Of a stretch of 16,742 nt of DNA, positions 74-16,742 are shown piece by piece. Made by a program: the position numbers and the translations under genes. The notes under the pieces were generated by a model. That model was not told where the DNA came from. It saw nothing but the letters and a program-made list of their open reading frames with translations, and did no database searches. Position 1 is the stretch's first letter, and every line of letters begins with the position of its first letter. Source of the DNA: a virus; the UHGV virus genome UHGV-0281303; one strand, given 5' to 3'.

Positions 74-316
74 ATGGCAGAGATTATTCCCATGACTGAA
101 GAACAGAAATTCCAGCTAGAGATTTACAAGCTGGTCATGAACCAGAACGCAGCCGCAGAGGAAGCATTTCAATTCATTGGCACTGACGAACTGAAGCTTG
201 AGCTATTCAAAATTCACTTCCAGTCAGGCGGCGCTAATTCAGATATCACGACCCGCACTATCGAAGCGGTGCGTAAATCGAAGGAAGCGTTAGACCTGTT
301 CACCACCGGAGCATAA
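74..316 (+). CDS. hypothetical small protein (80 aa) immediately upstream of the terminase small subunit
   Basis: ATG at 74 with GGAG 6-7 nt upstream; stop TAA 2 nt before the next start. Same strand and tightly packed with the terminase genes. No family recognised. Confidence 0.6.
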   Translation: MAEIIPMTEEQKFQLEIYKLVMNQNAAAEEAFQFIGTDELKLELFKIHFQSGGANSDITTRTIEAVRKSKEALDLFTTGA

Positions 317-318
317 AC

Positions 319-759
319 ATGGCGCGCCCAACAAAGTATCAAGAGGCGTACGCCGAACAGGCACGCAAACTGTGCTTGCTGGGCTACACCGATGCAGAAC
401 TTGCTGATTTCTTTGAAGTTAGTGAGTCAACTATTAACAAGTGGAAGCTTGATTATCCTAAGTTTTCGGAGTCCATAAAAAGGGGTAAGGCCGTCGCTGA
501 TGCAGAAGTTAGTGATCGTCTTTATCAGCGCGCTATGGGCTTCGTGGCTCCAGACATCGATATTCGTGTTATTGAAAACAGAATTGTCGAAACTCCGCTT
601 GAGAAGTATTACCCGCCTGATACAACCGCCGCCATCTTCTGGCTTAAGAACCGACAGAAGGATAAATGGCGCGACAAGGTTGATCACGAGCTAACAGGCA
701 AAGACGGCGGCGCAATTCAGATTGAAACATCACCGATGAGCACTCTATTCGGAAAATGA
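319..759 (+). CDS. terminase small subunit (Sf6 gp1-like / P22 gp3 position)
   Basis: 146 aa directly upstream of the large terminase with an ATGA stop/start overlap. The C-terminal tail ...GKDGGAIQIETSPMSTLFGK matches my recollection of Sf6 small terminase; the N-terminal region looks like a DNA-binding helix-turn-helix segment. Confidence 0.85.
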   Translation: MARPTKYQEAYAEQARKLCLLGYTDAELADFFEVSESTINKWKLDYPKFSESIKRGKAVADAEVSDRLYQRAMGFVAPDIDIRVIENRIVETPLEKYYPPDTTAAIFWLKNRQKDKWRDKVDHELTGKDGGAIQIETSPMSTLFGK

Positions 760-2171
760 CCTCGATTAATCCTATCTTTGAACCGTTCATTGAGGCGCAT
801 CGCTACAAAGTCGCCAAAGGCGGTCGAGGTAGCGGAAAGTCTTGGGCAATTGCGAGGCTGCTTGTTGAAGCGGCGCGTCGGCAGCCTGTGCGCATACTTT
901 GCGCTCGTGAGCTGCAAAACAGTATCAGCGATTCGGTAATTCGGTTGCTTGAAGACACCATAGAGCGGGAAGGGTATTCGGCCGAGTTTGAAATTCAGCG
1001 TTCCATGATTCGTCATCTCGGAACGAATGCTGAGTTCATGTTCTACGGCATCAAAAACAACCCGACAAAGATTAAATCGCTCGAAGGTATTGATATCTGC
1101 TGGGTGGAAGAAGCGGAAGCGGTAACGAAGGAATCATGGGATATCCTGATACCAACCATCCGTAAGCCGTTCTCTGAAATATGGGTGAGCTTTAACCCGA
1201 AGAACATACTCGACGATACCTATCAGCGATTCGTTGTAAATCCTCCCGATGATATTTGCCTGCTGACGGTGAACTACACCGACAACCCGCACTTTCCTGA
1301 AGTTCTCCGTCTGGAGATGGAAGAGTGTAAACGCAGAAATCCGACCCTGTATCGTCACATCTGGCTTGGTGAGCCAGTGAGCGCAAGTGATATGGCAATC
1401 ATCAAACGTGAATGGCTTGAAGCCGCAACCGATGCGCACAAGAAACTCGGATGGAAAGCGAAAGGCGCGGTTGTTTCTGCTCATGACCCGTCAGATACAG
1501 GGCCGGATGCTAAAGGTTATGCATCGCGTCACGGTTCGGTAGTTAAGCGCATTGCCGAAGGTCTTCTGATGGACATCAACGAGGGGGCTGACTGGGCTAC
1601 TTCGCTGGCGATTGAAGACGGTGCTGACCATTACCTGTGGGATGGTGATGGCGTCGGTGCAGGGCTACGCAGACAGACAACGGAAGCGTTCTCCGGTAAG
1701 AAAATCACCGCCACGATGTTCAAGGGCAGCGAATCGCCATTTGATGAAGATGCACCATATCAGGCTGGAGCATGGGCTGATGAAGTCGTGCAGGGCGACA
1801 ACGTTCGCACTATTGGCGATGTGTTCCGCAATAAGCGAGCGCAATTCTATTACGCGCTGGCTGACAGGTTGTATCTGACATATCGGGCGGTTGTCCACGG
1901 TGAGTATGCAGACCCCGACGACATGCTGAGCTTCGACAAAGAAGCGATAGGCGAGAAGATGCTGGAGAAGCTGTTTGCAGAACTGACGCAGATTCAGCGC
2001 AAATTCAATAACAACGGGAAGCTGGAGCTTATGACTAAGGTCGAAATGAAGCAGAAGCTCGGTATTCCATCTCCTAACCTGGCTGATGCGCTGATGATGT
2101 GTATGCATTGCCCGGAGTCGGCTGCGCAACCCGACTATTCCAGTTACTCAATTCCTTGTGGTGTAGGTTGA
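756..2171 (+). CDS. terminase large subunit (ATPase plus nuclease)
   Basis: 471 aa. Walker A-like motif AKGGRGSGKS near residue 20 (about nt 813-845). Size and position match the P22-like/Sf6 large terminase (about 470-500 aa). ATGA overlap with the upstream gene, 1 nt gap to the portal gene. Confidence 0.92.
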   Translation: MTSINPIFEPFIEAHRYKVAKGGRGSGKSWAIARLLVEAARRQPVRILCARELQNSISDSVIRLLEDTIEREGYSAEFEIQRSMIRHLGTNAEFMFYGIKNNPTKIKSLEGIDICWVEEAEAVTKESWDILIPTIRKPFSEIWVSFNPKNILDDTYQRFVVNPPDDICLLTVNYTDNPHFPEVLRLEMEECKRRNPTLYRHIWLGEPVSASDMAIIKREWLEAATDAHKKLGWKAKGAVVSAHDPSDTGPDAKGYASRHGSVVKRIAEGLLMDINEGADWATSLAIEDGADHYLWDGDGVGAGLRRQTTEAFSGKKITATMFKGSESPFDEDAPYQAGAWADEVVQGDNVRTIGDVFRNKRAQFYYALADRLYLTYRAVVHGEYADPDDMLSFDKEAIGEKMLEKLFAELTQIQRKFNNNGKLELMTKVEMKQKLGIPSPNLADALMMCMHCPESAAQPDYSSYSIPCGVG

Positions 2172-2172
2172 T

Positions 2173-4371
2173 ATGGCAGAAAAAAAGATGACTGACTGGC
2201 ATCGCAAGGTGCTGTGCAACTTTGATAATGCCTGGTCAGCAACGCAGGATATGCGTAAGCAGATTATTGAGGCTCAACGTTTCGTCCGGGTGTCCGGCGC
2301 ACAGTGGGAAGGCAGCACAAACGCTGGTTACTCATTTGATGAAGGCAGGTTTGAGCATTACCCGCGCTTTGAACTGAATAAGATTGCCCGTGAATGTGAT
2401 CGCATCATTGGCGAGTATCGACAGAATCGCATCAGCGTTAAATTCAGGCCGAAGGATGACAAGGCATCGGAAGCGTTAGCCGAAAAGATGAACGGCAAAT
2501 TCCGCGCTGATTATCAGGAAACATCCGGTGGCGAAGCGTGTGATAACGCATTTGATGATGCTGTAACGGGCGGATTCGGTTGTTTCCGCATGTGTGCTGA
2601 TTACGAAGATGAAATGGATCCGAGTAACGAGCAGCGACGCATCAGCCTTCTTCCTGTTTACGACCCGGCGACATGCGTCTTCTTCGATCAGGACAGCAAG
2701 CAATATGACCGCTCTGATGCCATGTGGGCTATGGAAATGTTCTCCATGACGCCTAAAGCGTTCGAGGCTGAATACCCTGATTCCATCGCGGCAAGCCCTT
2801 CTCGTGATGACACTGGTACTCAGTATGACTGGTTAACGCCTGACGCCATCTATGTTGGACGCTACTACGAAGTCCGCATAGAGAAGGTGAAGCTCACAGC
2901 ATGGCGTAACCCTGTCAGCGGAGAAACGGCAATCTATGATGAAGAGCAAATCAAAGATATTGTCGACGAGCTGACCGATGGTGCATTCGAACTGATTGGC
3001 GAGCGAACGGTGAAGAAACGCCGAGTTTATTGCGGTCTTCTGTCTGGCGCTGAATGGCTGGAAGAACCGAAGCGTATTCCGGGCGAACATATTCCTCTCA
3101 TCCCGGTATATGGGCGTCGTTCATTTGTTGATAATCAGGAGCGAATCGAAGGCCACGCAGCAAAAGCGATGGATGCACAGCGTCTTGAGAACCTGATGGT
3201 TTCCATGATTGCAGATAACGCTACTCAGGCTGGCGGCGATGGCATTCCTATCGTGGATGTTGATTTCATTCCCGGTCCATTAATGAATCACTGGGCAGAG
3301 AGGAATAAGAAAAGACCTGCAGTTCTTCCCATGACCAGCAAGAAGGACAAAAACGGAACGGTCATTTCAGAGGCTCAGGTTGCTGGCTGGACACCTCCGA
3401 CACAAATGCCTCCTGCTCTTGCTGGGCTATTGCAGTACACCGGAACGGCTATTCAGCAAATTACAGGTGCGTCGCAGCTTGAGAACATGCCGAGCAACGT
3501 CGCTACCGATACCGTTGATAGCATCTTTAACCGGATGGACACGCAGTCCTATATCTACATGGACAACATGGCTAAATCCATGCGCCGTGCTGGCGTCGTG
3601 TGGCTTTCTATGGCTCGTGAAGTCTATGGCAGCGATACGCCAATGCGCATCGTTAATGAGGATGGCAGCGATGACGTGGCGCTGATGACTGGTGAAGTGG
3701 TTGACCGTCAGACAGGGAAGGTTATCGCGCTTAACGACCTTTCGCAGGGTAACTATGAAGTGACTGTCGATGTCGGTCAGTCGTTCGCTACTCGCCGTGA
3801 TGCAACGGTTAAGTCGTTGCTTTCCATGCTGGCACTTATCCCGCCAGGAACGCCGAAGCATGACCTTGTATCGTCGATGATTCTCGACAATATGGACGGC
3901 GAAGGGATGGACGACCTTAAAGAATACAACCGCAATCAGTTGCTTCTGTCTGGCGTTATTAAGCCGAGAACACCAGAAGAACAGCAAATGGTTGAGCAGG
4001 CGAAACAACAACAGGCCAGTCAGCCAGATCCGGCTATGGTTGCTGCGCAAGGTCAGCTTCTTGCTGGTCAGGCTGAATTGCAGAAAGCGCAGAACGAACA
4101 GGCAGCCATTCAGGTTAAAGCATTCCAGGCACAGACTGATGCTCAGGTTGCAGCGGCAAATGTTGTGAAAATCCTCGCATCTGCCGATAGCCAGCAGAAA
4201 TCTGATATCCGCGAGGCTCTGAAACTGCTCGGACAGTTCCAGCAACAGCAAGGAGACAATGCCCGTGCTGATGCAGAGCTTGTCCTGAAAAGTCAGGCAC
4301 AGGGCCATGCGCAGCACATGGACATCAGCAGCATCCTGCAAAAATCAACTCAGCAACAACCACAGCAGTAA
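2173..4371 (+). CDS. portal protein with long C-terminal Gln/Ala-rich helical barrel
   Basis: 732 aa. The C-terminal ~130 residues (PEEQQ...DPAMVAAQGQLLAGQAELQKAQNEQ...) closely resemble the P22 portal C-terminal barrel as I recall it. Gene order terminase-portal-scaffold-coat. Confidence 0.92.
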   Translation: MAEKKMTDWHRKVLCNFDNAWSATQDMRKQIIEAQRFVRVSGAQWEGSTNAGYSFDEGRFEHYPRFELNKIARECDRIIGEYRQNRISVKFRPKDDKASEALAEKMNGKFRADYQETSGGEACDNAFDDAVTGGFGCFRMCADYEDEMDPSNEQRRISLLPVYDPATCVFFDQDSKQYDRSDAMWAMEMFSMTPKAFEAEYPDSIAASPSRDDTGTQYDWLTPDAIYVGRYYEVRIEKVKLTAWRNPVSGETAIYDEEQIKDIVDELTDGAFELIGERTVKKRRVYCGLLSGAEWLEEPKRIPGEHIPLIPVYGRRSFVDNQERIEGHAAKAMDAQRLENLMVSMIADNATQAGGDGIPIVDVDFIPGPLMNHWAERNKKRPAVLPMTSKKDKNGTVISEAQVAGWTPPTQMPPALAGLLQYTGTAIQQITGASQLENMPSNVATDTVDSIFNRMDTQSYIYMDNMAKSMRRAGVVWLSMAREVYGSDTPMRIVNEDGSDDVALMTGEVVDRQTGKVIALNDLSQGNYEVTVDVGQSFATRRDATVKSLLSMLALIPPGTPKHDLVSSMILDNMDGEGMDDLKEYNRNQLLLSGVIKPRTPEEQQMVEQAKQQQASQPDPAMVAAQGQLLAGQAELQKAQNEQAAIQVKAFQAQTDAQVAAANVVKILASADSQQKSDIREALKLLGQFQQQQGDNARADAELVLKSQAQGHAQHMDISSILQKSTQQQPQQ

Positions 4372-4461
4372 TTAACCCATAACGTGCAATGGCTGTCTTT
4401 ATGAGGCCTGGCACCCTATTGCCTTCCGATGGGCTGAACATCGAGTAAACAGGGGTAACAA

Positions 4462-5355
4462 ATGGACCAGATGGCAGAAAACACACCAGAAGTTGAAATC
4501 GAACCCGACGCGTCAGAGCAGATTCCTGATGATGTCGAACTGGCTGAAGAAGTCGAAAAAGCAGATGGCAGTGAGTCCTCAGGAAATGATGCAGAGGAAG
4601 CTACTGACACTGATGACGACGAATCAGAACAGGAATTCTACTTTGGTGACGAAAAGCTGGATTCGCCAACCAGCGAAGATAGCGCAGAGCATGGACTGGT
4701 AAAACACCTGCGCAAGACGATTAAAGAGAAAGACCGTGAGCTGAAAGAGCTGATGCGTCAGTCTCAGAAACCCGTCGAGCAGCAGCCGGTAATCACTCAA
4801 CCACCGCGAATGCCAAAACTGGATGATGAGGACATCGGTTTCGATGAAGAAATCTACCAGCAACGCATGGCTAAGTGGGCAGAGGATAACGGCAAGTACC
4901 AGCAACAGGAGATGGCTCGCAAGCAGAAGGAGCAGGAGCTTCAGGCTGCCTATCAAGAGCGATTATCCAAATATCAGCAACGTGTTAAGGCTCTCAAAGT
5001 TCCTGGCTATCAGGAAGCTGAGCAGGCCGTACTCGAGGAAATCCCCATCGAGACACAAAACGCGATCCTGTTTGAGTCAGAGAAGCCGGAAATCGTTGTT
5101 CTGGCACTCGGTCGCAACGCTGAACTGCGCAAGCAACTGGCAGAAGCTACCAACCCCGTAGCAATTGGTCGTCTGCTGGAACGTATCGAATCGAAGGCCA
5201 GAATCATGCCAAAAGCAAAAACCACGGCAGCCACAACCCCGACAGTTAAGGGGAGCAACGGCGCAGTAATCAACAACCTCGGCAAATTGAAAGCCAAGGC
5301 GCTGGAAACTGGTGACTGGACGCCGTATTTCGCCGCTAAAAAGGCAAAAAAATAA
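4462..5355 (+). CDS. scaffolding protein
   Basis: 297 aa, highly charged, with an acidic N-terminal region, predicted helical KE/Q-rich middle and a basic C-terminal tail (...AAKKAKK). Sits between portal and coat, as P22 gene 8 (303 aa) does. AGGGG-type ribosome-binding site upstream. Confidence 0.8.
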   Translation: MDQMAENTPEVEIEPDASEQIPDDVELAEEVEKADGSESSGNDAEEATDTDDDESEQEFYFGDEKLDSPTSEDSAEHGLVKHLRKTIKEKDRELKELMRQSQKPVEQQPVITQPPRMPKLDDEDIGFDEEIYQQRMAKWAEDNGKYQQQEMARKQKEQELQAAYQERLSKYQQRVKALKVPGYQEAEQAVLEEIPIETQNAILFESEKPEIVVLALGRNAELRKQLAEATNPVAIGRLLERIESKARIMPKAKTTAATTPTVKGSNGAVINNLGKLKAKALETGDWTPYFAAKKAKK

Positions 5356-5373
5356 CCTATCGGAGCATTAAGC

Positions 5374-6627
5374 ATGGCTAACCAATTAGCAAAAGACCTT
5401 GAAATCATGTTCGAAAACTACGTTGAAGGCTTTGAGGCCGCCTGCGTAGTTTCCCGTAACGCTAAAAAATTCCGTCCCGGTGATACAGCAATGCAGCGAG
5501 CAGGTGATGTTCTGTATCGTCCGCAGCATTACCACATGAACATTGAGGAAGGCCTAGACCTCAGCGGCAAAACGCCAACAGCACTGGTTCAGCGCCTTGT
5601 TCCTTCTGTGTTCAAGGAACCGAAAAACATTCTGTACACTCTGGATGCGCGTGAAATGCGTGACCCGGAACATAAAACTGAAGCTGGTCGCGCCGCAGGT
5701 ATGCGCCTTGCTGCACAGATTGACTCTGACCTGATTTCCATGGTTACGCAGCGTGCTACTAACGTGATCACGATGGCTGACTCAACCACAGGTACACAGG
5801 GCCGTGATTTGTGGAACTGTGCGGCAGGTATTGATGCCACCATGACGGCGATAGGTGTACCGCAGGGTATCAACCGTCGCTCTTTCTGGAACCCCTTCAA
5901 CTACAAAGACCTTGCTGGCGAGCTTGGTCACCGTGCCTATGCTCAGGGCGCAACCCTGACAGCATACGAAAAAGCGCAAATCCCTCCGGTTGCGTCCTTC
6001 GATAGCTACAAGACCGATATTTCTGGTCGTGTTCCGAAGGGTACAGCAACTTCCATTACGCTGGCAGCAGCACCTGCGCACAAGGTTGAAGCGAAAGATG
6101 CTAACGATATGCCAGTGGATAACCGACAGGGGACCATTACGGTATCTGCTGAAGGTTTGCAGGTTGGCGATGCGTTTACCATTGCAGGGGTGAATTCTGT
6201 ACACCAGATCACCAAAGATACCACCGGGCAGCCGCAGGTATTCCGCGTTCTGGCAGTAAGCGGAACGACAGTAACTATCTCCCCGAAAATTCTGCCACCT
6301 GACAACGCGGATGTCGCCAGCCGTCCATATGCAAACGTTGATGCTAATGCGGCAAGTGGCGCAGCAATCACCATTCTCAACAAAAATGCCGCACCGGCTA
6401 ACCTGTTCTGGGCTGATGGTTCTGTTGAACTGATGTACGGCAAACTGGCGTTCCCGACTGGTCAGGGTCCACAGGTAATGACAGCAACCACCGAGCAGGG
6501 CGCTACGCTGATCATGTCTTATGCCTTCGACCACATCAAAGGCGTAACCACTGCTCGTTTCACCACTCTGTACGGTTGCTCTGTACTTGTTCCTGAATAT
6601 ACGGGCATCGTTATTGCCGGGCAGTAA
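5374..6627 (+). CDS. major capsid (coat) protein
   Basis: 417 aa, GGAG ribosome-binding site 8 nt upstream, followed by a strong intrinsic terminator. Size and position match P22-like coat proteins (about 420-430 aa). Confidence 0.85.
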   Translation: MANQLAKDLEIMFENYVEGFEAACVVSRNAKKFRPGDTAMQRAGDVLYRPQHYHMNIEEGLDLSGKTPTALVQRLVPSVFKEPKNILYTLDAREMRDPEHKTEAGRAAGMRLAAQIDSDLISMVTQRATNVITMADSTTGTQGRDLWNCAAGIDATMTAIGVPQGINRRSFWNPFNYKDLAGELGHRAYAQGATLTAYEKAQIPPVASFDSYKTDISGRVPKGTATSITLAAAPAHKVEAKDANDMPVDNRQGTITVSAEGLQVGDAFTIAGVNSVHQITKDTTGQPQVFRVLAVSGTTVTISPKILPPDNADVASRPYANVDANAASGAAITILNKNAAPANLFWADGSVELMYGKLAFPTGQGPQVMTATTEQGATLIMSYAFDHIKGVTTARFTTLYGCSVLVPEYTGIVIAGQ

Positions 6628-6633
6628 TTTTGG

Positions 6634-6656
6634 TGGGGCTTCGGCCCCATTTTTAT
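6634..6656 (+). terminator. rho-independent terminator / attenuator after the coat gene
   Basis: GC stem GGGGC (6635-6639), TTCG loop, GCCCC (6644-6648), then ATTTTTATT. Lies immediately 3' of the coat stop codon. Confidence 0.7.
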
Positions 6657-6668
6657 TGGGAGAAGACA

Positions 6669-6857
6669 ATGGCACGAACAATGCTCTATAAGCCGGGCAA
6701 CATGATCACCTGTGGTCAGTTTGCTGTCGATTACATCATTGTTGATGACGAAGAAGTTAAATCTCACCTGAAAAAAGGCTGGGTAAAAACTCCTGAAGAA
6801 ACCGCAACGAAGCATAAAGTGGCTAAGGCGGAAGAAGATGGCGAAAACGAAGGGTGA
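6669..6857 (+). CDS. small hypothetical protein (62 aa) between coat and gp4-like gene
   Basis: ATG at 6669 preceded by GGGAGA. The ORF track's longer version starts at a TTG at 6630 that lies inside the terminator hairpin, so I prefer the ATG. Its 3' end overlaps the next gene by 20 nt. Basic and Glu-rich at the C-terminus. Confidence 0.45.
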   Translation: MARTMLYKPGNMITCGQFAVDYIIVDDEEVKSHLKKGWVKTPEETATKHKVAKAEEDGENEG

Positions 6858-7299
6858 TCTCGTTCTTAAGGCTTTACGAAAAGCCGGGCTGTATTCCAAT
6901 GCCACGTTGACAGATGCTGACCCTCAGGCAATTGAAGATGCCATTAATGACCTCGAAGACATGATGGCAGCATGGCAGGCTAAAGGTATCGAGCTTGGAT
7001 ATCAGTTTGCTGATACAGAAAACGGCATCATGCCGTTACCTGACGATGATTCAGGTATCCCTGCATGGGCAAATGATGGCGTCGCTTTGAAACTCGCTGT
7101 GCAAGTGTGCATGGATAACGTCATTCAGCCGTCAGACGCTCTCCTTACCGCTGCTGACAGTGCATATCAGACAATCTGTATCGCTTTAACCAAAATACCA
7201 CCACTTGAGCGGCGAAATGACATGCCTCGCGGTAGTGGTAACAAAAGCGCGTTTACGTGGAATCGGTTTTACATCGAGAAAGATGATCCGAGTACGTGA
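6838..7299 (+). CDS. head-to-tail adaptor / head completion protein (P22 gp4-like)
   Basis: 153 aa. N-terminus MAKTKGDLVLKALRKAGLYSNATLTDADPQAIEDAINDLEDMMAAW resembles P22 gp4 as I recall it; C-terminal PRGSGNKS motif region. Position after coat. Confidence 0.8.
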   Translation: MAKTKGDLVLKALRKAGLYSNATLTDADPQAIEDAINDLEDMMAAWQAKGIELGYQFADTENGIMPLPDDDSGIPAWANDGVALKLAVQVCMDNVIQPSDALLTAADSAYQTICIALTKIPPLERRNDMPRGSGNKSAFTWNRFYIEKDDPST

Positions 7300-7308
7300 G
7301 GTGAATAA

Positions 7309-8727
7309 ATGCCGATTCAGCAACTTCCGCTTATGAAAGGTGTCGGCAAAGACTTTCGAAACGCCGACTATATCGACTATCTGCCAGTGAATATGCTGGC
7401 TACACCAAAAGAAATCCTTAACAGCAGCGGATATCTTCGCTCATTCCCGGGCATTGCCAAACGTTCTGATGTGAACGGCGTATCGCGCGGCGTCGAGTAC
7501 AACATGGCGCAGAGTGCTGTTTATCGCGTGTGTGGTGGCAAGCTGTACAAAGGAGAAAGTGAAGTCGGTGATGTTGCCGGAAGTGGTCGCGTATCAATGG
7601 CGCATGGTCGGACATCACAGGCGGTAGGCGTTAATGGTCAACTGGTCGAGTATCGCTATGATGGTACGGTTAAAACCGTCTCAAACTGGCCTACAGACAG
7701 TGGATTCACTCAGTATGAGTTAGGTTCAGTTCGCGACATTACGCGCTTACGTGGGCGTTATGCGTGGTCAAAAGACGGAACTGATTCATGGTTTATCACT
7801 GACCTTGAAGACGAATCTCATCCTGACCGTTACAGCGCACAATATCGTGCCGAGTCTCAGCCTGACGGAATCATCGGCATCGGAACATGGCGAGATTTCA
7901 TCGTCTGCTTTGGTTCATCGACGATTGAATATTTTTCCCTGACAGGTGCAACCACCGTTGGTGCAGCTTTGTATGTCGCACAGCCATCACTGATGGTGCA
8001 AAAAGGCATCGCCGGGACTTACTGCAAAACGCCGTTTGCTGATTCCTATGCGTTCATCAGCAATCCGGCAACAGGTGCTCCGTCTGTATACATCATCGGC
8101 TCCGGTCAGGTGTCACCAATCGCCAGTGCGAGCATTGAGAAAATCCTCCGCTCCTACACTGCTGATGAACTGGCTGATGGTGTGATGGAATCGCTGCGAT
8201 TTGATGCGCATGAGCTTCTGATTATCCACCTTCCGCGCCATGTTCTGGTGTACGACGCATCTTCAAGCGCTAATGGTCCGCAATGGTGTGTGTTGAAAAC
8301 TGGCTTGTATGACGATGTGTACCGCGCTATCGACTTCATTTACGAAGGCAATCAGATAACGTGCGGAGATAAGCTGGAATCGGTTATCGGCAAATTGCAG
8401 TTCGATATCAGCAGCCAGTATGGGCTACAGCAAGAACACCTGTTGTTTACACCACTCTTCAAAGCTGAGAACGCCAGATGTTTTGATCTGGAAGTTGAAT
8501 CATCGACTGGTGTCGCTCAGTATGCTGACCGCCTGTTCCTCTCTGCAACCACTGACGGCATAAATTACGGTCGTGAGCAGATGATTGAGCAGAATGAACC
8601 GTTCGTTTACGACAAGCGCGTTTTGTGGAAGCGTGTCGGGCGAATCAGGAAAAATGTCGGCTTCAAACTTCGCGTTATCACAAAGTCACCTGTAACTCTG
8701 TCTGGCGCTCAGATAAGGATTGAGTAA
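7309..8727 (+). CDS. tail hub / head completion protein (P22 gp10-like)
   Basis: 472 aa, the same length as P22 gp10. N-terminus [49 protein letters not shown] matches my recollection of gp10 very closely. Confidence 0.9.
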
Positions 8728-9428
8728 TGGCGGATTCATCACTGAATAATCCTGTCGCGGTTCAGGCTACGCGCCTTGATGCTTCAATTTTGCCACGCAA
8801 TATATTCAGCCAGTCTTACCTGCTGTATGTCATTAATCAGGGGGCTGATGTCGGCGCAATTGCCGGGAAGGCAAATCAGGCTGGTCAGGGCGCTTACGAT
8901 GCTCAGGTGAAAAACGATGAACAGGATGTCGAACTGGCTGATCACGACGCAAGAATCACCGCAAACACAAAAGCGATAAATCTCCTTGAGGTCAGGTTAA
9001 CAACCGCCGAAGGGAAGATAGTCGTACTGCGTAGCGATGTTGATTACTTGCTGGATGAGGTTATCGATATTCAGGCGCATCTGGTCACTGTTGACCAAAG
9101 ACTGGATGGCGTAGAAAGCGATGTCTCTGGCATTAAGAGTGATTACGTATCGAAAACCGTAACAGAATCGCAGTCTCTTGCGTCACCGCTGGATGTAAAA
9201 ACATCATATTCAGTTGATGGAATTCAGGTCGTTGGAGCAAGGCAGACCGGATGGACTGCAGCCACAGGCACACCACTTCTTGGCTCATTCAACGCTAACC
9301 AGTCATACACGGTCGGCACTACGTACACACAATCCGAAGTCGCAGCTATCGCTACAGGTTTGGAGCAGGCGCGGCAGCGTATTCTGGCGCTTGAAACAGC
9401 ACTTAGATTACATGGGCTGATTGACTGA
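8727..9428 (+). CDS. tail needle (P22 gp26-like)
   Basis: 233 aa, the same length as P22 gp26. N-terminus [27 protein letters not shown]... and C-terminal ...[32 protein letters not shown] match the gp26 pattern; the central coiled-coil region is divergent. TAATG stop/start overlap with gp10. Confidence 0.9.
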
Positions 9429-9883
9429 TGATTACATTTAAACCAACGCGAAACATCGACTTGATCGAAGCAGTCGGAAATCACCCCGACATTATCGCCG
9501 GGAGCAACAACGGTGATGGATACGACTACAAGCCTGAATGCCGTTACTTTGAGGTGAACGTGCACGGGCAGTTCGGCGGAATTGTTTACTATCAGGAGAT
9601 TCAGCCGCTGACATTCGATTGCCACGCCATGTACCTGCCAGAGGTTCGTGGATTCAGCAAGGAAATCGGGCTGGCGTTCTGGAGATACATTCTGACTAAC
9701 ACCACTGTTCAGTGTGTCACATCGTTCGCTGCGCGCAAATTCCGCCACGGGCAGATGTACTGCGCAATGATTGGCCTTAATCGTGTAGGAACCATCAAGA
9801 AATACTTCAAAGGCGTGGATGACGTGACGTTTTACAGCGCCACACGCGAAGAACTAATCGACTTCCTGAATCACAGGAGATAG
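9428..9883 (+). CDS. gp14-like protein (ejection-protein assembly/accessory)
   Basis: 151 aa in the position of P22 gene 14, between the needle and the ejection proteins. Start overlaps the needle stop (ATGA-type overlap at 9426-9430). Confidence 0.75.
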   Translation: MITFKPTRNIDLIEAVGNHPDIIAGSNNGDGYDYKPECRYFEVNVHGQFGGIVYYQEIQPLTFDCHAMYLPEVRGFSKEIGLAFWRYILTNTTVQCVTSFAARKFRHGQMYCAMIGLNRVGTIKKYFKGVDDVTFYSATREELIDFLNHRR

Positions 9884-9885
9884 CC

Positions 9886-10575
9886 ATGTTATATGCATTT
9901 AAGCTGGGCAGAAAACTGCGCGGCGAGGAACCTTATTGCCCTGAAAAAGGCGGGAAAGGTGGCTCCGATAAAAGTGCAAAGTATGCCGCAGAAGCTCAGA
10001 AGTATGCCGCAGACCTGCAAAATCAGCAGTTCAACACCATCATGAATAACCTGAAGCCGTTTACTCCTCTGGCTGATAAGTATGTCGGCAGCCTCGAGAA
10101 CTTATCGTCTCTGGAAGGGCAAGGTCAGGCACTTAACCAGTATTACAACTCTCAGCAGTACAAAGATCTTGCTGGTCAGGCTCGCTATCAGAGTCTGGCG
10201 GCAGCGGAAGCAACAGGTGGATTGGGTTCCACTGCAACCGGTAATCAGTTAGCAACAATCGCACCAACGCTTGGTCAGCAGTGGCTGTCTGGTCAGATGA
10301 ACAACTACCAGAATCTGGCAAATATTGGTCTTGGCGCTCTTCAGGGGCAGGCAAACGCCGGGCAAACATATGCCAACAACATGAGCCAGATTTCACAGCA
10401 AAGCGCGGCGCTGGCGGCGGCAAACGCCAACCGACCGTCAGCATTGCAGCAGGGTGTTAGTGGTGCTGCATCCGGTGCGCTTTTGGGTGGTGGCATAGCC
10501 AGTGCTCTCGAGCTATCAACTCCGTGGGGTGCTGGTATCGGTGCTGGTCTTGGTCTGCTTGGCTCGTTGTTTTAA
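9886..10575 (+). CDS. ejection (E) protein, P22 gp7-like
   Basis: 229 aa, the same length as P22 gp7. Gly/Ala/Gln-rich C-terminal half with a terminal hydrophobic Gly-rich segment (GGGIASALELSTPWGAGIGAGLGLLGSLF). Position after gene 14. Confidence 0.75.
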   Translation: MLYAFKLGRKLRGEEPYCPEKGGKGGSDKSAKYAAEAQKYAADLQNQQFNTIMNNLKPFTPLADKYVGSLENLSSLEGQGQALNQYYNSQQYKDLAGQARYQSLAAAEATGGLGSTATGNQLATIAPTLGQQWLSGQMNNYQNLANIGLGALQGQANAGQTYANNMSQISQQSAALAAANANRPSALQQGVSGAASGALLGGGIASALELSTPWGAGIGAGLGLLGSLF

Positions 10576-10585
10576 GGGGTAATCA

Positions 10586-11935
10586 ATGGCTACGTGGCAA
10601 CAGGGTATTAATTCTGGTGGTTTTCTGGCTGGCATTGGTGCGCAAAATGAGAATGCGCCAAAGGCAAGCGACATTAACGCAACGCTTGGTCTGATTCGCG
10701 AAAACAATGAACTGGCTCGATCAGGTGCAAATAACGTTGGTCTGACCGCGTTACGTGGTCTGGCTGGAGTTGCTGATATTTATAAGCAGGAACAGCAACA
10801 GAAAGCTATTAGTGCGTTCAATAAGGTTCACGCTGATGCATGGGCTTCTGGTGATCCATCGGGACTATTTAAGTTTGCCCAGGAAAATCCAGCGTTTGTT
10901 GCACAGGCACAACAGGCGTTTTCCGGTCTTAATGATCAGCAACGCAACGATATGGGCGATTTAGCCATGAGGGCTAACGTCGCTCTTTCTCAGGGACCGG
11001 AAGCCTACAGTAAATTCATTACTGACAACAAGGACAGGTTAAATCGCGTTGGTGCTAATGCTGACTGGATGATTCAGACAGGTATCCAGAATCCAGAGCA
11101 GCTATCACACATGCTGACTACTATGTCTCTCGGTGCGCTTGGACCAGAAAAGGCGTTTGCTGTTCAGGATAAGATGGTTGGTCGCCAGCAGGAGCAGCAA
11201 AGAATTAACGAAACCATTCGCAATAATGACATGACGAATGCGAGGGCTATTAGGGGGCAGGATCTTTCCTATAAGGCTCAAATGGCAAGACTGAATCACG
11301 ACAAGTATGTGTTTAAGCAGTCACAGGCGGCCCTTGAAAGAGCAGGACAACTTCAGGATATGGATGTTTTGTCTCTTAACTCACAGATAGCAGCGACGGG
11401 AATTGATCCGCTAACCGGTAAAGCTGCAACGTCAGCCAGAATGTCTCAGGCTAAGAGATGGCTTGATGGCAACAATAATTACAACAATGCGTTGATTACT
11501 GGTGAGCGAGGGATAGAGAAAATTGATTCTTTGCTTGGTAAGAAGGAGCTTGAAGGTATCGGTCGCTTCGAAGGAAGAAATATAGATGGCTTCACAAGTG
11601 CTGAAGGGCTTGCAAACCGTAATGCGATAGAAGAATTAAAGTCGGGTGCGTTTGTCCAGAACGTGCAGACTATGCGAGGTATGGGTAGCCTCTCCAATGC
11701 TGAAGGCCAAAAACTGGAAAACCTGATCGCGAAACTCGATATAACACAGCCTGAAGAGGTCGTCAGAAAACAGTTATCTGAAATACGATCTCAATATTCT
11801 GTATTTCAAAAGGTTGCAGCAAGGGAGGCTGAATCAATGGGATATAGTTCATCAGGTTATGACACATATGTTAGTGAGCGAAAATCAGGAAGCGACAGCA
11901 ATAAGTCCGGTTTCTCGTCTTTATGGGGTGATTAA
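10586..11935 (+). CDS. ejection (E) protein, P22 gp20-like
   Basis: 449 aa in the gene 20 position. AAGGGG ribosome-binding site upstream. The 3' third of the gene is noticeably more AT-rich than the 5' part. Confidence 0.7.
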
Positions 11936-14103
11936 TGGCTAAGGCATGGAAAGATGTTATCGCTTCTCCACAGTATCAGGCGTTAACTGAAGAACAGAAA
12001 GCACAGGCTCAAGCGCAATATTTTGATGAGGTTGTTGCCCCTAAGGCTGGTGACAAATGGGCTGAAGCAAGAGATCAGTTTTATGCAGCATACCCTCCGC
12101 CTCAGCAGCAGAAAGAAGAACCATCATTGATGCAACAAGCTGGTGATTGGCTCACAGGTGGTCAAAGTGCAGGGCAAATTGCAGAACAGGCTGGTCGTGG
12201 TCTGGTAAACATACCATTTGACGTATTGCAGGGTGGCGCAAGTCTGATTAATGCAATCAGCCAGGGGCTTGGCGGCCCCAAGGTTTTGGATGATGTTTAT
12301 CGCCCCGTCGATCGACCGACAGACCCTTACGCGCAAGCCGGTGAAACAATTGGTGGGTATCTCCTGCCAATTGGCACAGCGGCAAAAGCTGCTGGATCGC
12401 CAGCAAAGCTCGCTGAAGATATCGGTTCCGCAGGAAACATGATTGCAGGTTCTCTTGCTGATGCTGCAAATCAGGAGGGCGACTTTGCACAAAATGCTGC
12501 CATTAACGGTGGTATCAATATTGGTGCTCAGGGGATACTTTCTGGCGCTGGAAGGATCTTAACATCTAAATCACCTCAAGTTCTTGGTGGCGGGGCAATA
12601 AATTCCGCTGCTGATGTTTCGAAAATGGCAAAGTCTGGTACAGGAAGAGAGATTATTGCCAGACAGTCAGCTAATGTGTCAGACGAAATAGCAAAAGCAG
12701 CAGATACTGCTGGAATAGATATCAACGCATTAACTCCTGGCATGAGATCAGGTAGTCGTGGTCTTGCTCAGGCGGAGGGGATTCTGGCGTCAAAGCCCGG
12801 AATTACACAGGATGCACACACCAAAGCATTCAGTGAAATAGAGTCGAAATTTAACTCAGCATTGGATGAGTTTGGGGCTGAAGCAGGAACTGCATCAGAA
12901 AAAAGTGCAGCCATAAAACAAAGGGTTTTGGCAAGTATTGATAAAATGAAAAATTCAGAAAAGGCCGCATGGGATAGCGTCCGCTCCACGATGCCTGACG
13001 CAAAGGCCAGAATGTCAAACCTGAACGCTACAATTCAGGGTGATATTTTGGCTGGCATGCCGCTAACTCCTGAGATGAAACAATTCGCATCTGCTTATGC
13101 TAAAACTGGTAAAAAAGGAATCACGTTTGATGCCATGAAGGCATGGCGAAGTAAACTTGCTGACGCAGAGCAGAAGTATATAAGGTCTGGTGAGGCAAAT
13201 ACGGCAAGGCGCATGGCTGAGCTTCGTGATGCAGCAACGGAAGATATGCGCATAATGGCTCAAAATGGCGGTTTTCTTGATGACTGGCAAAAAGCTAATG
13301 ATCTGTCAAAGGCAAGATTTACAGCACAAGAACAGGCTGAAGCGGCGTTTGGTAGAGACCTTGCAACTGATCAGTTGGTAACTAATGGCTCTAAGGCGTT
13401 ACAGGGTTCAGCAAAAAGTGGAACAGGTCAGTTCCATAAAATAATAAGTGCCCTACCTGAGTCAGAACGCGCGCCAGCAATTGCATCAATATTACAAGAT
13501 GCAATGTCGCAAGGGGTACGCGGAGGTAAGTCTGAAGAGGCTGGAATTAAGCATATCGCGACTATTCTTACCCCACAAAACGTGAAGGCAATTAGTCGAT
13601 ATTCTCCAGAACTTGGCAGGATTACAAGTTCATACGGAGAACTTGCACGAGCAGCAACAAAGCCACTTCGATATGTTGAACAGACAGGGCGATCTATGCC
13701 AGCCATTAGCACTCTTGAGAATGGCCTTCATCCAGTTTTAGAGAGCGCATTGTCTGGCGCTTTTAGAACTACTGGCACTATCGCAGGGTTCTCTGGAGGA
13801 GGCGTTATTGGAGCAATAGCGGGTGGCGCTGCAGGTGGGGCAATTGATGCAATGGCAAAAGGAGCGATAGCGAAATTATCCGCAACTAGAAGCGGTCGTT
13901 ACGCTATTGAAAAGGCTGTTCAAGAGGCAACAAAGGCAGTTAAGGTTGGGGCAAGTGATGGCGCATTAGCGGCGGCGGAACGCAGATTTATGGCAAATAA
14001 GGCCGCCGTAAAAGCAATACGCGAGGCACTAGGAAACGAAGAGTTCCAGCGTTTAGCAAGAGCTGGAATTGTGGCATCGCTAAGCGGAATGGCACAGGAG
14101 TAA
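11935..14103 (+). CDS. ejection (E) protein, P22 gp16-like (extended, 722 aa)
   Basis: Last gene of the late train, start overlapping the upstream stop. Gly/Ala-rich hydrophobic segment near the C-terminus ([29 protein letters not shown]), compatible with a membrane-active ejection protein. Longer than P22 gp16 (about 609 aa). Confidence 0.7.
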
Positions 14104-14487
14104 TTAGTCATCCATGGATGGATTGAGCTTATCTCGTGTTGATGTGGCAATTTTCCCAACATTTTTCAACCAAGATTTTAAGAAGGATATGTCGTCCTTA
14201 ATATCATGAATATCCTCATTCTTTATACGATCAACCTTATCCTCTAAGCTCTCTATAGAACGCTCAATGCTAGACAGAGAGATTTTTAAGTCCCCTTGCT
14301 CACGTTCCAGTGAGGATTTGAGAGCATAATATTCGTTTTCTAGAATTCCTATTTTTTTTGTTAGAGAGTGCATTCGATACTCATACACCAAACCAGAAAC
14401 GACTAATGCAGCCAACAGAAACCATTCAAGCACACCAACCTCCTTAGTTTTGAGCAGGATACCAGATGATGTATGGAGAGGCATCAT
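14104..14487 (-). CDS. small membrane protein with N-terminal TM helix and C-terminal coiled coil (sieA-position cargo gene)
   Basis: 127-codon ORF in AT-rich DNA, where long ORFs are unlikely by chance. Hydrophobic segment VLEWFLLAALVVSGLVYEY, then a heptad-like charged region (LENEYYALKSSLEREQGDLKISLSSIERSIESLEDKVDRIKNE). No obvious Shine-Dalgarno before the ATG, so the start is uncertain. Its stop abuts the gp16-like stop with zero spacer (TAA/TTA at 14101-14106). Confidence 0.55.
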   Translation of the reverse strand: MMPLHTSSGILLKTKEVGVLEWFLLAALVVSGLVYEYRMHSLTKKIGILENEYYALKSSLEREQGDLKISLSSIERSIESLEDKVDRIKNEDIHDIKDDISFLKSWLKNVGKIATSTRDKLNPSMDD

Positions 14488-14508
14488 CTACTGGTGATAG
14501 AACGATGG

Positions 14509-14537
14509 TTGCATAATGATATCACGTGACGTAGAAT
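14509..14537 (+). promoter_or_regulatory. candidate sigma70 promoter for the two-gene cassette, with overlapping palindromes in the spacer
   Basis: -35 TTGCAT (14509-14514), 17-bp spacer, -10 TAGAAT (14532-14537). The spacer holds palindromes TGATATCA (14517-14524) and TCACGTGA (14522-14529). Predicted start site is about 60 nt upstream of the ATG at 14606. Confidence 0.4.
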
Positions 14538-14605
14538 TACTGCGCATAGCGTGTATTCAATGGATGCATAGCTATTGATAATCTCCGATAAGAAAGGAGG
14601 TTTGT

Positions 14606-15172
14606 ATGAGCAATGAGACTAATGGGATTGATGAAATGTTTAGCTTGAACGCTGCCAAAGCTGGAGTCGCAATAGGTTTGCTATTACAGCAAGCTTCTGC
14701 GTTCAGTTGTGAGGTGGTTGTTACTGATAACGTTCAGCACGCTTACCATCAATCCTCATTCAGCAGTGAACAGGCTAATGATGAGCTTCATGAGGCGGTG
14801 TCTTCGATTAAAGAATTGTCTCGAATGCTGAAATACGCTTATCGTGTTCTTGCAAACGCTACCGATGAGAATGTAGACAATGTGTTGTCTATCATTGAAC
14901 CAGAAAAGTCTCGATTGATAGAGCATCAATTGAGAGGACTTGAAGGGGCAATGAAATCGGTATTCAAAGAAGCTTCTGCTGATTTTAAAGAGATCGCAAG
15001 AGATATCTATATCGTTGTTGCTGATGCTAGATCTGCCGTAACTAACCTGAATAGTCTTATTAAACAACGCTCATGTGTTCCGGTTGTTTTTGATAGTTCC
15101 GTAGATATGGCTGGTTTGCGTGCGCTTGCTGAGCACGGGACTCGTGTGTTTCACTCTGGTAACTTCCACTGA
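14606..15172 (+). CDS. hypothetical protein (188 aa), upstream partner of the YafO-like toxin; candidate antitoxin/immunity component of unknown family
   Basis: Strong ribosome-binding site AAGGAGG 5 nt upstream of the ATG. Stop codon TGA overlaps the Shine-Dalgarno (GAGG) of the downstream gene, with an 8-nt gap. Acidic, predicted mostly helical, no DNA-binding or TM motif that I recognise. Confidence 0.75.
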   Translation: MSNETNGIDEMFSLNAAKAGVAIGLLLQQASAFSCEVVVTDNVQHAYHQSSFSSEQANDELHEAVSSIKELSRMLKYAYRVLANATDENVDNVLSIIEPEKSRLIEHQLRGLEGAMKSVFKEASADFKEIARDIYIVVADARSAVTNLNSLIKQRSCVPVVFDSSVDMAGLRALAEHGTRVFHSGNFH

Positions 15173-15180
15173 GGTAAAAC

Positions 15181-15630
15181 ATGCAAGTAACCGTGGAATA
15201 TAATCAGGATAGTTTTGACTATTTTTTCTCCCCGGTTTTTGTTGAGTTTCCTGATTTAAAACAAACACTTGTAGATGATTTTATCATCTACAAGTCTACG
15301 GGAACGTTGCCCAGCTATTTTGGCAGAGACACCTCTTATCATCGGCCTCCTGATATTGAAGATGCAGGTCTTATGCACCTTCATTTAGCAATTGGTGAAA
15401 ATAAATTTGAGCCAATAAAAAATGGCACAGATATCAGCACACCGCAAAAGTTGCAGTGGCATAAAACATCCAATACCGCTCTCGTTTATGCACAAAATCT
15501 TTTTGATGAGAACAGGTATTCATTGATTGCTCTTTTTCATCCAGTAGCTCACATGTCTGCTAACAATCATAATAGAATGAGAGTGTTAGCAGGGTATGCG
15601 AGAGACTTTAGAAACACTATGTTTGACTAA
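15181..15630 (+). CDS. YafO-family toxin-like protein (ribosome-dependent mRNA interferase family)
   Basis: 149 aa. Motifs DFIIYKSTGTLPSYFGRD, HLHLA, ALVYAQNLFDENRYSLIALF and NNHNRM...FR align by eye with E. coli YafO as I recall it (DFISYKRDGVLPDTFGRD, HIHLA, HLVYCQGAFDEQAWLLIAIL, NNQMH...FR). Followed by an intrinsic terminator. Confidence 0.8.
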   Translation: MQVTVEYNQDSFDYFFSPVFVEFPDLKQTLVDDFIIYKSTGTLPSYFGRDTSYHRPPDIEDAGLMHLHLAIGENKFEPIKNGTDISTPQKLQWHKTSNTALVYAQNLFDENRYSLIALFHPVAHMSANNHNRMRVLAGYARDFRNTMFD

Positions 15631-15656
15631 ACCCACCGTCAGGTGGGTTTTTTTAT
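15630..15656 (+). terminator. rho-independent terminator after the toxin gene
   Basis: Stem ACCCACC (15631-15637), loop GTCA, GGTGGGT (15642-15648), then a T-run to 15654. Starts immediately after the stop codon at 15628-15630. Confidence 0.75.
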
Positions 15657-15686
15657 CTTCTCTACTTTAAAGATTAAGGAAATACC

Positions 15687-15866
15687 ATGACCATAGAAGA
15701 ACGTGTGGAAAACCTTGAACGCACCATCAAAGTGATGAAGTGCCATCTTGGAGAACTTCATCTTGAATCACTGAAGCATCAAGCAGAAGAGCTTGAGAAA
15801 TCAGCAAAATCAATGCGCAGTCGTTACGATTCGACTCTGGAGGCTATTAAAAACGGTAGCTATTGA
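15687..15866 (+). CDS. small hypothetical coiled-coil protein (59 aa)
   Basis: ATG at 15687 with AAGGA 7 nt upstream; charged helical sequence (MTIEERVENLERTIKVMK...). Not in the ORF track, presumably because it is under the length cut-off. Its 3' end overlaps the 3' end of the convergent minus-strand ORF by 20 nt, so one of the two may be spurious. Confidence 0.35.
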   Translation: MTIEERVENLERTIKVMKCHLGELHLESLKHQAEELEKSAKSMRSRYDSTLEAIKNGSY

Positions 15867-16032
15867 TACGAGAAGCAGTATCCAGATCATCCCTATCTCC
15901 GCTTCTTGTTAGTTCATCAAAAACAGCTTGTCGAGCATCTGGTGGCAACTTGGAGTAGATAAGTGATACCAGTTTATGAAGTTTCTTTAACTCGCGCTGC
16001 AACTCTTCGTTAGACATTGGTTTATTATTCAT
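15847..16032 (-). CDS. hypothetical protein (61 aa), distal gene of the mnt operon
   Basis: ORF in AT-rich DNA on the same strand as and downstream of mnt and orf90, 24-nt gap from orf90. Weak Shine-Dalgarno (AGGT about 9 nt upstream). No family recognised. Confidence 0.5.
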   Translation of the reverse strand: MNNKPMSNEELQRELKKLHKLVSLIYSKLPPDARQAVFDELTRSGDRDDLDTASRINSYRF

Positions 16033-16056
16033 TTTACATACCTGCCATGTACGCCG

Positions 16057-16329
16057 TTAATTAACTAATGTCATTGAACCTGGAAGGTTGCCACCTCTGA
16101 GATCAATACATTCTTCAGCTGTAGCCATTCTCCAATTTCCAAAAGCATCACGTATAGCAAATTGGTCTTCAAAGCCAAGCCAGATAGAGCACTGACCAAA
16201 CTCATCATATGTCTCTATCCGTATTGACTCTTCGGTAAACGGATAATAAGCTTCATATCTCTTTGCAAGCTCAATAGTGAAAGGAAGTACTTTTATTTGC
16301 TCGAAAATTTCTTTGTTCGTTGGTTTCAT
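16057..16329 (-). CDS. hypothetical protein (90 aa), translationally coupled to mnt
   Basis: Start ATG overlaps the mnt stop (ATGA, 16326-16329). GGGATGGG/AAGGGA purine-rich stretch 6-10 nt upstream. No family recognised. Confidence 0.6.
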   Translation of the reverse strand: MKPTNKEIFEQIKVLPFTIELAKRYEAYYPFTEESIRIETYDEFGQCSIWLGFEDQFAIRDAFGNWRMATAEECIDLRGGNLPGSMTLVN

Positions 16330-16568
16330 TTCCCATCCCTTACACGTTGTAGAACATCAATAGTCACATCAAGAGCCTCTTTCTCTGACTTGGTCAGTTG
16401 CTGACTACTTGAAGGTATTACCTGCTCTTTATGTATCTTTATCCACAATTGGATAGCGGCAATAATTTCAGCATTGATAGAGCGACGATTTGTTGCAGCA
16501 ATATGCGTAAGTTGCTGTTTTATCTCATCTGGCATTCTTACGTTGAATTGCGGATCATTTCTAGCCAC
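16326..16568 (-). CDS. mnt: Mnt-like ribbon-helix-helix repressor (immI region)
   Basis: 80 aa starting at a GTG (reverse complement of CAC at 16566-16568) with AAGGAG 6-7 nt upstream. N-terminus MARNDPQFNVRMPDEIKQQLTHIAATNRRSINAEIIAAIQ resembles P22 Mnt (MARDDPHFNFRMP...ANGRSMNSELLQIV) as I recall it. Divergent from an Arc-like gene. Confidence 0.85.
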   Translation of the reverse strand: MARNDPQFNVRMPDEIKQQLTHIAATNRRSINAEIIAAIQLWIKIHKEQVIPSSSQQLTKSEKEALDVTIDVLQRVRDGK

Positions 16569-16585
16569 GTCATTCTCCTTTTATT

Positions 16586-16640
16586 TGTTGACATGCTAGA
16601 ACGGTAGTAGTACGCTTTCAATAGTAGTACGGTAATACCA
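16586..16640. promoter_or_regulatory. divergent overlapping promoter/operator region between mnt and arc, with a direct repeat TAGTAGTACG
   Basis: + strand: -35 TTGACA (16588-16593), 17-bp spacer, weak -10 TACGCT (16611-16616). - strand: -35 TTGAAA (complement of 16616-16621), 17-bp spacer, -10 TAGCAT (complement of 16593-16598). Direct repeat TAGTAGTACG at 16605-16614 and 16623-16632, each containing the palindromic core GTAC. Confidence 0.4.
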
Positions 16641-16653
16641 CAAAGGGGATGAC

Positions 16654-16742
16654 ATGCAAGGTGCAAGAAAAATGCCGCAGTTCAATTTGCGGTGGCCTAA
16701 AGAAGTATTGGATTTGGTGCGCAAGGTAGCTGAAGAGAACGG
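16654..16742 (+). CDS. arc: Arc-like ribbon-helix-helix repressor, 5' part only (truncated by the window end)
   Basis: Translation MQGARKMPQFNLRWPKEVLDLVRKVAEENG... resembles P22 Arc (MKGMSKMPQFNLRWPREVLDLVRKVAEENGRS...) as I recall it. AAAGGGGA ribosome-binding site upstream. Runs off the window. Confidence 0.85.
   Translation, partial: MQGARKMPQFNLRWPKEVLDLVRKVAEEN

Follow-up and report, generated by a model that had tools for sequence, protein, structure and literature searches.

The viral genome UHGV-0281303 was analysed as a window of 16,742 nucleotides, which belongs to a P22-like, HK620-type podovirus (Lederbergvirus) and contains its late region, with the gene order terminase, portal, scaffold, coat, gp4, gp10, gp26, gp14, gp7, gp20 and gene 16. 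The stretch of interest here, from 14104 to 16329, lies between gene 16 and the repressor gene mnt and is called the island in the following. In P22-like phages, the stretch that separates gene 16 from gene 9 has been named the 'ant moron'; sixteen genomes showed ten types of it, described as 'a state of rapid flux' (Villafane et al. 2008, PMC2629481). In P22 it consists of sieA, hkcC, orf59a, mnt, arc and ant, whereas epsilon34 and HK620 carry an hkcB homologue and CUS-3, UTI-1 and APEC-1 have six-gene ant morons (PMC2629481). We show below that the island is very probably the cargo part of such an ant moron in a P22-like phage or prophage, assembled as a mosaic of three segments with swapped cassettes. 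The phenomenon has already been described and only this combination of genes is new.

The island begins one base past the gene 16 stop codon and holds six open reading frames (ORFs), namely four small genes of no assigned function and a two-gene toxin cassette (Table 1). An earlier note on this DNA, made by eye from the letters, had counted five or six small genes plus the toxin cassette; the six found here include the cassette. The several changes of coding strand that it described are real, and there are four of them: gene 16 is read rightward, the hkcB-like gene leftward, orf188, yafO and orf59 rightward, orf61, orf90 and mnt leftward, and arc rightward. None of the six island proteins matched a structural or lysis family. 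The mnt and arc genes at the right-hand side provide the content of the immI region, and the tailspike gene lies beyond the window end; the genes that come next in loci with 99.7% identity over 15630-16742 are arc, ant and the tailspike gene.

Table 1. Features of the island and of its flanks in the 16,742-nucleotide window.
Feature	Coordinates	Strand	Remarks
Segment A	11935-14470		gene 16 and hkcB-like gene; 99.2% identical to 611R6-type loci
Segment B	14431-15653		orf188-yafO; 98-98.6% identical to S88 / APEC / ExPEC-type prophages
Segment C	15630-16742		orf59, orf61, orf90, mnt, arc; 99.7% identical to prophages L006-L013
A/B recombination junction (putative)	14431-14470		40-bp leader/Shine-Dalgarno (SD)/start sequence common to unrelated first-slot genes
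Gene 16	11935-14103	+	ejection / DNA-transfer protein, HK620 type; phrog_770, E = 1e-219; left anchor
hkcB-like gene	14104-14433	-	109 aa from GTG (most likely start); longest ORF (orf127) to 14487; first slot
Promoter-like site	14509-14537	+	TTGCAT, 17-nt spacer, TAGAAT; read from sequence
orf188	14606-15172	+	Pfam-less helical toxin partner, putative antitoxin; phrog_8416 full-length match
YafO-family toxin gene	15181-15630	+	149 aa; 8 nt downstream of orf188
Predicted intrinsic terminator of cassette	15629-15657	+	9-bp stem then T run; also B/C junction
orf59	15687-15866	+	small coiled-coil ORF; converges on orf61, 20-bp overlap
orf61	15847-16032	-	small helical protein, last gene of putative mnt operon; phrog_16466, E = 3e-11
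orf90	16057-16329	-	90-aa alpha/beta protein; overlaps mnt by 4 bp (ATGA)
mnt-like gene	16326-16568	-	ribbon-helix-helix repressor; PF03869 (Arc) E = 3e-13, phrog_2685; right anchor
arc, 5' part	16654-16742	+	cut by window end; tblastn 100% match to L007 arc

The variability of this slot was followed in relatives that were collected with the highly conserved gp10 as anchor, taking 80 of more than 595 IMG/VR loci and 12 loci from species-representative genomes with 10-kb flanks; with further loci added, 82 are complete from the gene 16 stop to the tailspike start. The gp10 proteins of these 82 loci are mostly at least 98% identical, and the interval from gene 16 to the tailspike gene varies from 77 to 4164 bp. 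It falls into 46 ORF architectures and, when the DNA is clustered independently of ORFs, into 54 interval types. The 67 mechanically called ORF families are an upper bound that includes some spurious antisense ORFs, and the clustering at the DNA level served to check them. An insert is missing altogether from thirteen loci and nine carry mnt alone, while the commonest cargo family is present in 16 and mnt-like genes in 62. These results bear out the proposal of the earlier note that the island is a hotspot of horizontally acquired cargo at a fixed position in a conserved backbone, and the two observations that it had named as counter-evidence were not made: the discontinuity in base composition is real (see below), and the genes are not syntenically conserved in all relatives. 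As for gene 16 and mnt, which it had proposed to check as conserved anchors, gene 16 is constant in position and not in sequence, being a mosaic whose type is linked to the first cargo gene, and the mnt-like genes are as frequent as just given.

The whole island was found in no record among 5426 complete E. coli genomes and about 50,000 phage genomes, which gave only partial matches, and no record in these two sets covers even 80% of window positions 13500-16742. When the right half (orf59 to orf90) was searched as DNA, the phages gave nothing and E. coli gave only decayed remnants of orf59. Neither IMG/VR nor the JGI metagenomes contained the exact 58-mer that bridges yafO and orf59, and the exact orf188 allele was recovered in three other contexts, none of which matches the arrangement of the window.

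Judged by its closest matches, the island is a mosaic of three independently circulating segments (A, B and C in Table 1), which overlap by 40 bp at A/B (14431-14470) and by 24 bp at B/C (15630-15653). High-identity matches to 611R6-type loci stop at 14470, and those to S88-type loci start at 14425-14431. Within this overlap, ACACCAACCTCCTTAGTTTTG is found upstream of differing first-slot genes, i.e., genes in the first position after gene 16, and the 40-bp leader behaves like a recombination linker. The 24-bp overlap corresponds to the terminator hairpin located 3' of yafO in every cassette examined. Since the overlaps coincide exactly with the leader and the terminator, the positions of the junctions suggest that exchange takes place by homologous recombination at short conserved linkers. 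This mapping of the junctions at base level offers a concrete picture of how cargo may be swapped at this locus. On the coding strand, the leader/SD sequence CAAAACTAAGGAGGTTGGTGTG is common to unrelated first-slot genes in the window (14431-14470) and in loci L004, L005, L106, L109 and L111; it also extends mechanical ORF calls upstream through the peptide 'KTKEVGV'.

Segment A joins gene 16 to the hkcB-like gene. The gp16 protein shares 99.7% identity with its counterpart from phage 611R6 and 95% with that from HK620, and over the last 600 bp of gene 16 and the gene after it the identity is 99.9% to Escherichia phage vB_EcoP-611R6 and 96.7% to HK620. Gene 16 is internally mosaic, with a patch (12115-12360) present at at least 94% identity in about 25 loci and the rest in 7-8 loci. 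The start of the hkcB-like gene is most likely the GTG at 14433, because phrog_5962 aligns with residues 19-127 of orf127 (E = 1e-60), hkcB of HK620 has the same length (330 nt, 109 aa) and an SD sequence, AAGGAGG, stands 5 nt before this codon. Its product has one predicted hydrophobic segment, as in a single-pass membrane protein, and a coiled coil. The stop codons of gene 16 and hkcB abut without an intervening base (TAA then TTA; 14101-14106), and the same zero-base gap is seen in ten surveyed loci. All ten hkcB loci have the HK620-type C-terminus of gp16, a linkage that could reflect function or simple physical proximity. Throughout the surveyed relatives, the first-slot gene is always leftward and nearly always codes for a membrane protein or lipoprotein.

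Segment B carries the toxin cassette. The product of its second gene matches PF13957 (YafO_toxin) over profile positions 3-101 of 101 with 78.9 bits, against a cutoff of 25 (E = 3e-22), and shares 38% identity with E. coli K-12 YafO in BLASTP (E = 7e-20); it does not reach the YafO equivalog cutoff of NF007377 (79 versus 153 bits). The first gene, orf188, gave no match in Pfam, NCBIfam, PADLOC or PDB sequence searches, hhalign against K-12 YafN returned a probability of 0.2% and thus no similarity to this Phd/YefM-like antitoxin, and a Foldseek search of the PDB retrieved generic helical bundles only. The orf188 family is tiny: 5.8 billion proteins include 6 clusters of it at 90% identity and 1.84 billion representatives include 24 at 50%, and none of the latter has a Pfam domain. 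The AlphaFold2 model of orf188 is a helical bundle with a confident core at residues 54-155. Its C-terminal tail, with the conserved motif HGTxVFxSGxFH, is modelled with low confidence, yet it is the most conserved part of the protein, a pattern that fits a segment folding upon binding of a partner; residues 159-188 are the proposed toxin-binding stretch.

In every context examined, a YafO-family gene follows the orf188 homologue after 3-8 nt, at partner identities of 34-66% and in a remote relative with E = 4e-9. Such pairs are present in P22-like prophages of E. coli and of S. enterica subsp. houtenae and diarizonae, and the pair is confined to accessory slots of temperate phages. A cassette of this kind was also seen between the head and tail genes of a siphovirus-type prophage, a relative of it between the Q antiterminator and holin genes of a lambdoid prophage, and others beside further mnt/arc/ant modules (non-P22-like loci L121, L123, L124 and L126). 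The toxin is better conserved than its partner, with 83-89% versus 54-66% identity and, in distant pairs, 56-71% versus 34-37%, and both genes are under purifying selection (dN/dS, the ratio of nonsynonymous to synonymous substitution rates, of 0.06-0.21 for orf188 and 0.04-0.16 for the toxin). The layout TTGCAx-17-TAGAxT/TACACT of the promoter-like site is retained in cassettes whose orf188 is just 54-66% identical. Because of this conserved site and the terminator, orf188-yafO would constitute a self-contained mobile two-gene moron with a putative promoter, and its genes most likely encode a type II-like toxin-antitoxin (TA) pair with a novel antitoxin. The earlier note had credited each gene of the island with its own signals, which is right only in part: orf188-yafO has the promoter-like site and the terminator, but orf90 overlaps mnt and, like orf61, apparently uses the signals of mnt as a distal gene of its operon.

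Inside yafO (15267-15295), 13 bp are repeated perfectly in inverted orientation around a 3-nt loop. A role of this repeat as regulatory hairpin or antisense terminator was weighed and rejected; it is dictated largely by the peptide VDDFIIYK, is reduced to 8 bp in close relatives and absent in distant ones, and is probably incidental. In an Rfam scan, the island yielded no more than a terminator-like match to sroH below the threshold.

The sharp drop in base composition that the earlier note had perceived was confirmed by calculation. The guanine plus cytosine (GC) content is 0.496 at 1-14103 and 0.399 at 14104-16329, and a likelihood scan put the best single change point (log-likelihood ratio 40) at 14100, at the gene 16 stop codon and three bases short of the end of that gene (GC 0.497 to the left and 0.402 to the right). 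Over the upstream 14 kb, windows of 2226 bp have a mean GC of 0.499 (standard deviation 0.014), and none is below 0.463. The right edge of the supposed 2.2-kb drop is not where it was drawn: the low-GC domain extends past 16329 through mnt and arc to the window end (GC 0.419). In 59 related loci, intervals of at least 800 bp have a GC of 0.389-0.444 versus 0.484-0.521 for the gp10-gp20 backbone. The island thus deviates from the flanking phage genes in the way expected of a moron, with the caveat that GC at third codon positions (GC3) is equally low in genes 20 and 16.

Several observations weigh against this account of the island. Composition alone does not mark the cargo boundary, because AT-richness at silent sites begins upstream of the island, synonymous-site GC falling already within 10586-14103 (genes 20 and 16). 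In a PADLOC search, none of the seven proteins had a significant match, and the best hits, DpdH and ZorA at E = 0.003, are coiled-coil noise. The -35 element of the promoter-like site of the cassette is weak, agreeing at 3 of 6 positions, and the site was not called by a consensus scan. Finally, neither a DNA-binding nor an antitoxin fold can be recognised in orf188, which at 188 aa is long for an antitoxin and has a borderline hydrophobic segment at its N-terminus.

Alternatively, the island could be a dedicated anti-phage defence hotspot in which most genes serve defence or exclusion, as the earlier note had suggested when it wrote of a moron or defence hotspot. We regard this as doubtful, if not without appeal. 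The same first slot is occupied in P22 by sieA, whose product, located in the inner membrane, blocks DNA injection via gp16 and gp20 (Leavitt et al. 2024, PMC10883804), and by analogy a defence role is plausible. Almost all first-slot genes of the relatives code for envelope proteins, two families (26 and 55 of the survey, and only these) have the SieA motif, and hkcB goes with the HK620-type gp16 without exception. TA modules, moreover, can function as abortive-infection systems. Set against this are the empty PADLOC search, the lack of SieA topology and motif in orf127, and the cargo of the relatives, which also includes a ClpP-like protease, a P63C-domain protein, CI-like repressors and antirepressors; the association of hkcB with gp16 may just reflect the zero-base gap. 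Identification of hkcB as a SieA homologue was rejected, as orf127 has neither the FxRYPxEAxxFNK motif nor a multi-pass topology. A hotspot for accessory genes is therefore what stands of that suggestion, and its defence part keeps the rank of a hypothesis.

A different objection concerns the GC step, which might be mainly an artefact of amino-acid composition, opposing an Ala/Gly-rich gp16 to small Lys/Asn/Ile-rich island proteins, and not a signature of foreign origin. In agreement with it, the GC3 of gene 16 (0.34) and gene 20 (0.41) is as low as that of the island (0.35), and the difference resides at the first and second codon positions: gp16 has a second-position GC (GC2) of 0.505 and a fraction of Gly, Ala, Arg and Pro (GARP) of 0.37, compared with 0.13-0.23 in the island proteins. 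The step at 14100 is indeed sharp partly because gp16 is so rich in Ala and Gly. As an explanation of the whole it is unlikely, since the head genes have a GC3 of 0.46-0.63, so that the right end of the late region is truly AT-rich at silent sites, the intergenic spacers of the island have a GC of about 0.38-0.40, and cargo status follows from presence and absence among relatives, independently of composition.

It is less probable still that orf188-yafO is no classical TA addiction module, with orf188 acting as a sensor, adaptor or chaperone, or with the toxin being used by the phage itself, e.g., for shutting off the host during late transcription. Such a role would agree with the absence of an antitoxin-type fold and of YafN homology in orf188, with the position of the cassette on the strand of the late operon between gene 16 and the tailspike gene, and with its location elsewhere inside structural or lysis clusters of other phages. 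Against it speak the typical type II layout, in which the partner precedes the toxin at a distance of 3-8 nt and pairing is obligatory across the family, and a partner that evolves faster than the toxin in a unit possessing its own conserved promoter-like site and terminator. That the island genes are core genes, syntenic in all relatives, is refuted by the survey, in which only mnt-like genes are common, 13 loci lack an insert and no cargo family exceeds 16 of the 82 loci, besides the failure to find the whole island in any database record searched.

To the right of the cassette, segment C contains genes of a different affiliation. The status of orf59 as a gene is uncertain, because a 76%-identical E. 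coli copy carries in-frame stops; the ORF has weak PHROG matches only and is identical in L006-L013. This copy, which is unannotated, was seen at 3380-3560 of L119 (E. coli S163-2) and in five similar genomes, and is a decaying remnant in a minimal ant moron. The small gene orf61 is always found downstream of mnt in relatives, with or without orf90. PADLOC, NCBIfam and PDB sequence searches were empty for orf59, orf61 and orf90. The 4-bp overlap with mnt suggests that orf90 is translationally coupled to it, and the mnt operon appears to include orf90 and orf61 as distal genes, which belong with mnt/immI rather than with the free cargo. In L004 (E. coli S88), L016, L020 and L021, a gene for a ClpP-like protease (PF00574, E = 2e-11) takes the place of orf90/orf61 directly downstream of mnt. 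In the divergent promoter region between mnt and arc, TAGTAGTACG occurs twice (16600-16640); these copies are presumably operator half-sites of Mnt/Arc.

The predicted fold of orf90 is confident (pLDDT, the predicted local distance difference test score, of 92) and had no significant match in the PDB. Its family counts about 26 clusters, all of roughly 90 aa, from Salmonella, Yersinia, Enterobacter, Photorhabdus, Xenorhabdus and Pectobacterium. In P22-like, Yersinia siphovirus-type and Xenorhabdus prophages, orf90 lies directly downstream of a gene of the Mnt type, which in turn diverges from arc and the antirepressor gene, and in a myovirus-type prophage of Pectobacterium it is orf90 itself that is divergent from the antirepressor gene. 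Homologues of orf90 were likewise seen alongside Mnt-type repressor/antirepressor modules in loci L112-L115. Because it follows this module across unrelated phage types, orf90 can be assigned, by gene neighbourhood, as an accessory of the ant/arc/mnt module, and may be a so far unstudied component of immI-type circuits.

Taken together, these data lead us to the following model. The slot between the ejection gene 16 and the tailspike gene 9 would be the one place in the late/structural operon that tolerates the exchange of accessory genes. Segment A would contribute gene 16 and the abutting leftward gene for an hkcB-like membrane protein in the slot of P22 sieA; segment B a self-contained rightward cassette made up of the promoter-like site, orf188, the YafO-family toxin gene and the terminator; and segment C orf59 together with orf61 and orf90, the latter two downstream of mnt, whose promoter probably drives their expression in the lysogen. 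Swaps would proceed via homologous recombination at the 40-bp leader/SD sequence and at the 24-bp terminator hairpin. YafO cleaves mRNA only while the mRNA is being translated (PMC2814082), and orf188 would neutralise a translation-dependent mRNA-cleaving toxin of this type through its conserved C-terminal tail. For the prophage, the outcome would be addiction and/or protection by abortive infection. Use of the promoter, toxicity and its neutralisation, as well as the benefit to the lysogen, are what we infer from the arrangement, whose composition, boundaries, mosaic build, variability among relatives and gene pairing were observed directly.

Since the hotspot is textbook knowledge for P22-like phages, confirming it adds little, and the leads of interest are above all the orf188-YafO cassette and, next to it, the association of orf90 with antirepressor modules. 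A YafO toxin with an obligatory, uncharacterised partner of about 190 aa is a candidate for a new antitoxin family or for a phage-borne abortive-infection module. A protein such as orf90, with a confident fold that lacks a PDB match, suggests an immI-type component that merits study. The further proposal that orf188-YafO is a phage-specific two-gene device for abortive infection or exclusion, and no housekeeping TA pair, with a new partner family and with movement as a cassette among accessory slots of P22-like, lambdoid and siphovirus-type prophages and, in parallel, that orf90 is a new regulator or partner of Mnt/Arc/Ant, is a tentative one which we consider unlikely in this full form.

How the island compares with known systems can be stated for each of its parts. 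Like the ant morons of P22-like phages, it lies directly after gene 16, is accompanied by mnt and arc, has an hkcB homologue as HK620 and epsilon34 do, is variable in length and content and has no predicted morphogenetic genes. It differs from those described in the combination hkcB + orf188-yafO + orf59 + orf61 + orf90, as judged from searches of phage records, complete E. coli genomes, IMG/VR and JGI metagenomes. The hkcB-like protein resembles P22 SieA (PMC10883804) in being a membrane protein encoded leftward in the same slot and in its linkage to a specific type of gp16, and differs from it in having one predicted transmembrane segment, together with a coiled coil, no FxRYPxEAxxFNK motif and no sequence similarity. 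The cassette shares with yafNO of E. coli K-12 (PMC2814082) the Pfam family of the toxin, its place as second gene of a tight two-gene unit and the level of identity given above. Unlike yafNO, it has an all-helical partner of about 190 aa with no similarity to YafN/Phd and a toxin that scores below the equivalog cutoff, and it is phage-borne and mobile between phage types. Compared with classical lambdoid morons, orf188-yafO is different in having two genes and in that its promoter is putative; it is similar to them in its promoter-like site, its terminator, its low GC and its pattern of presence and absence, and a relative of the cassette occupies the moron slot between Q and the holin gene.

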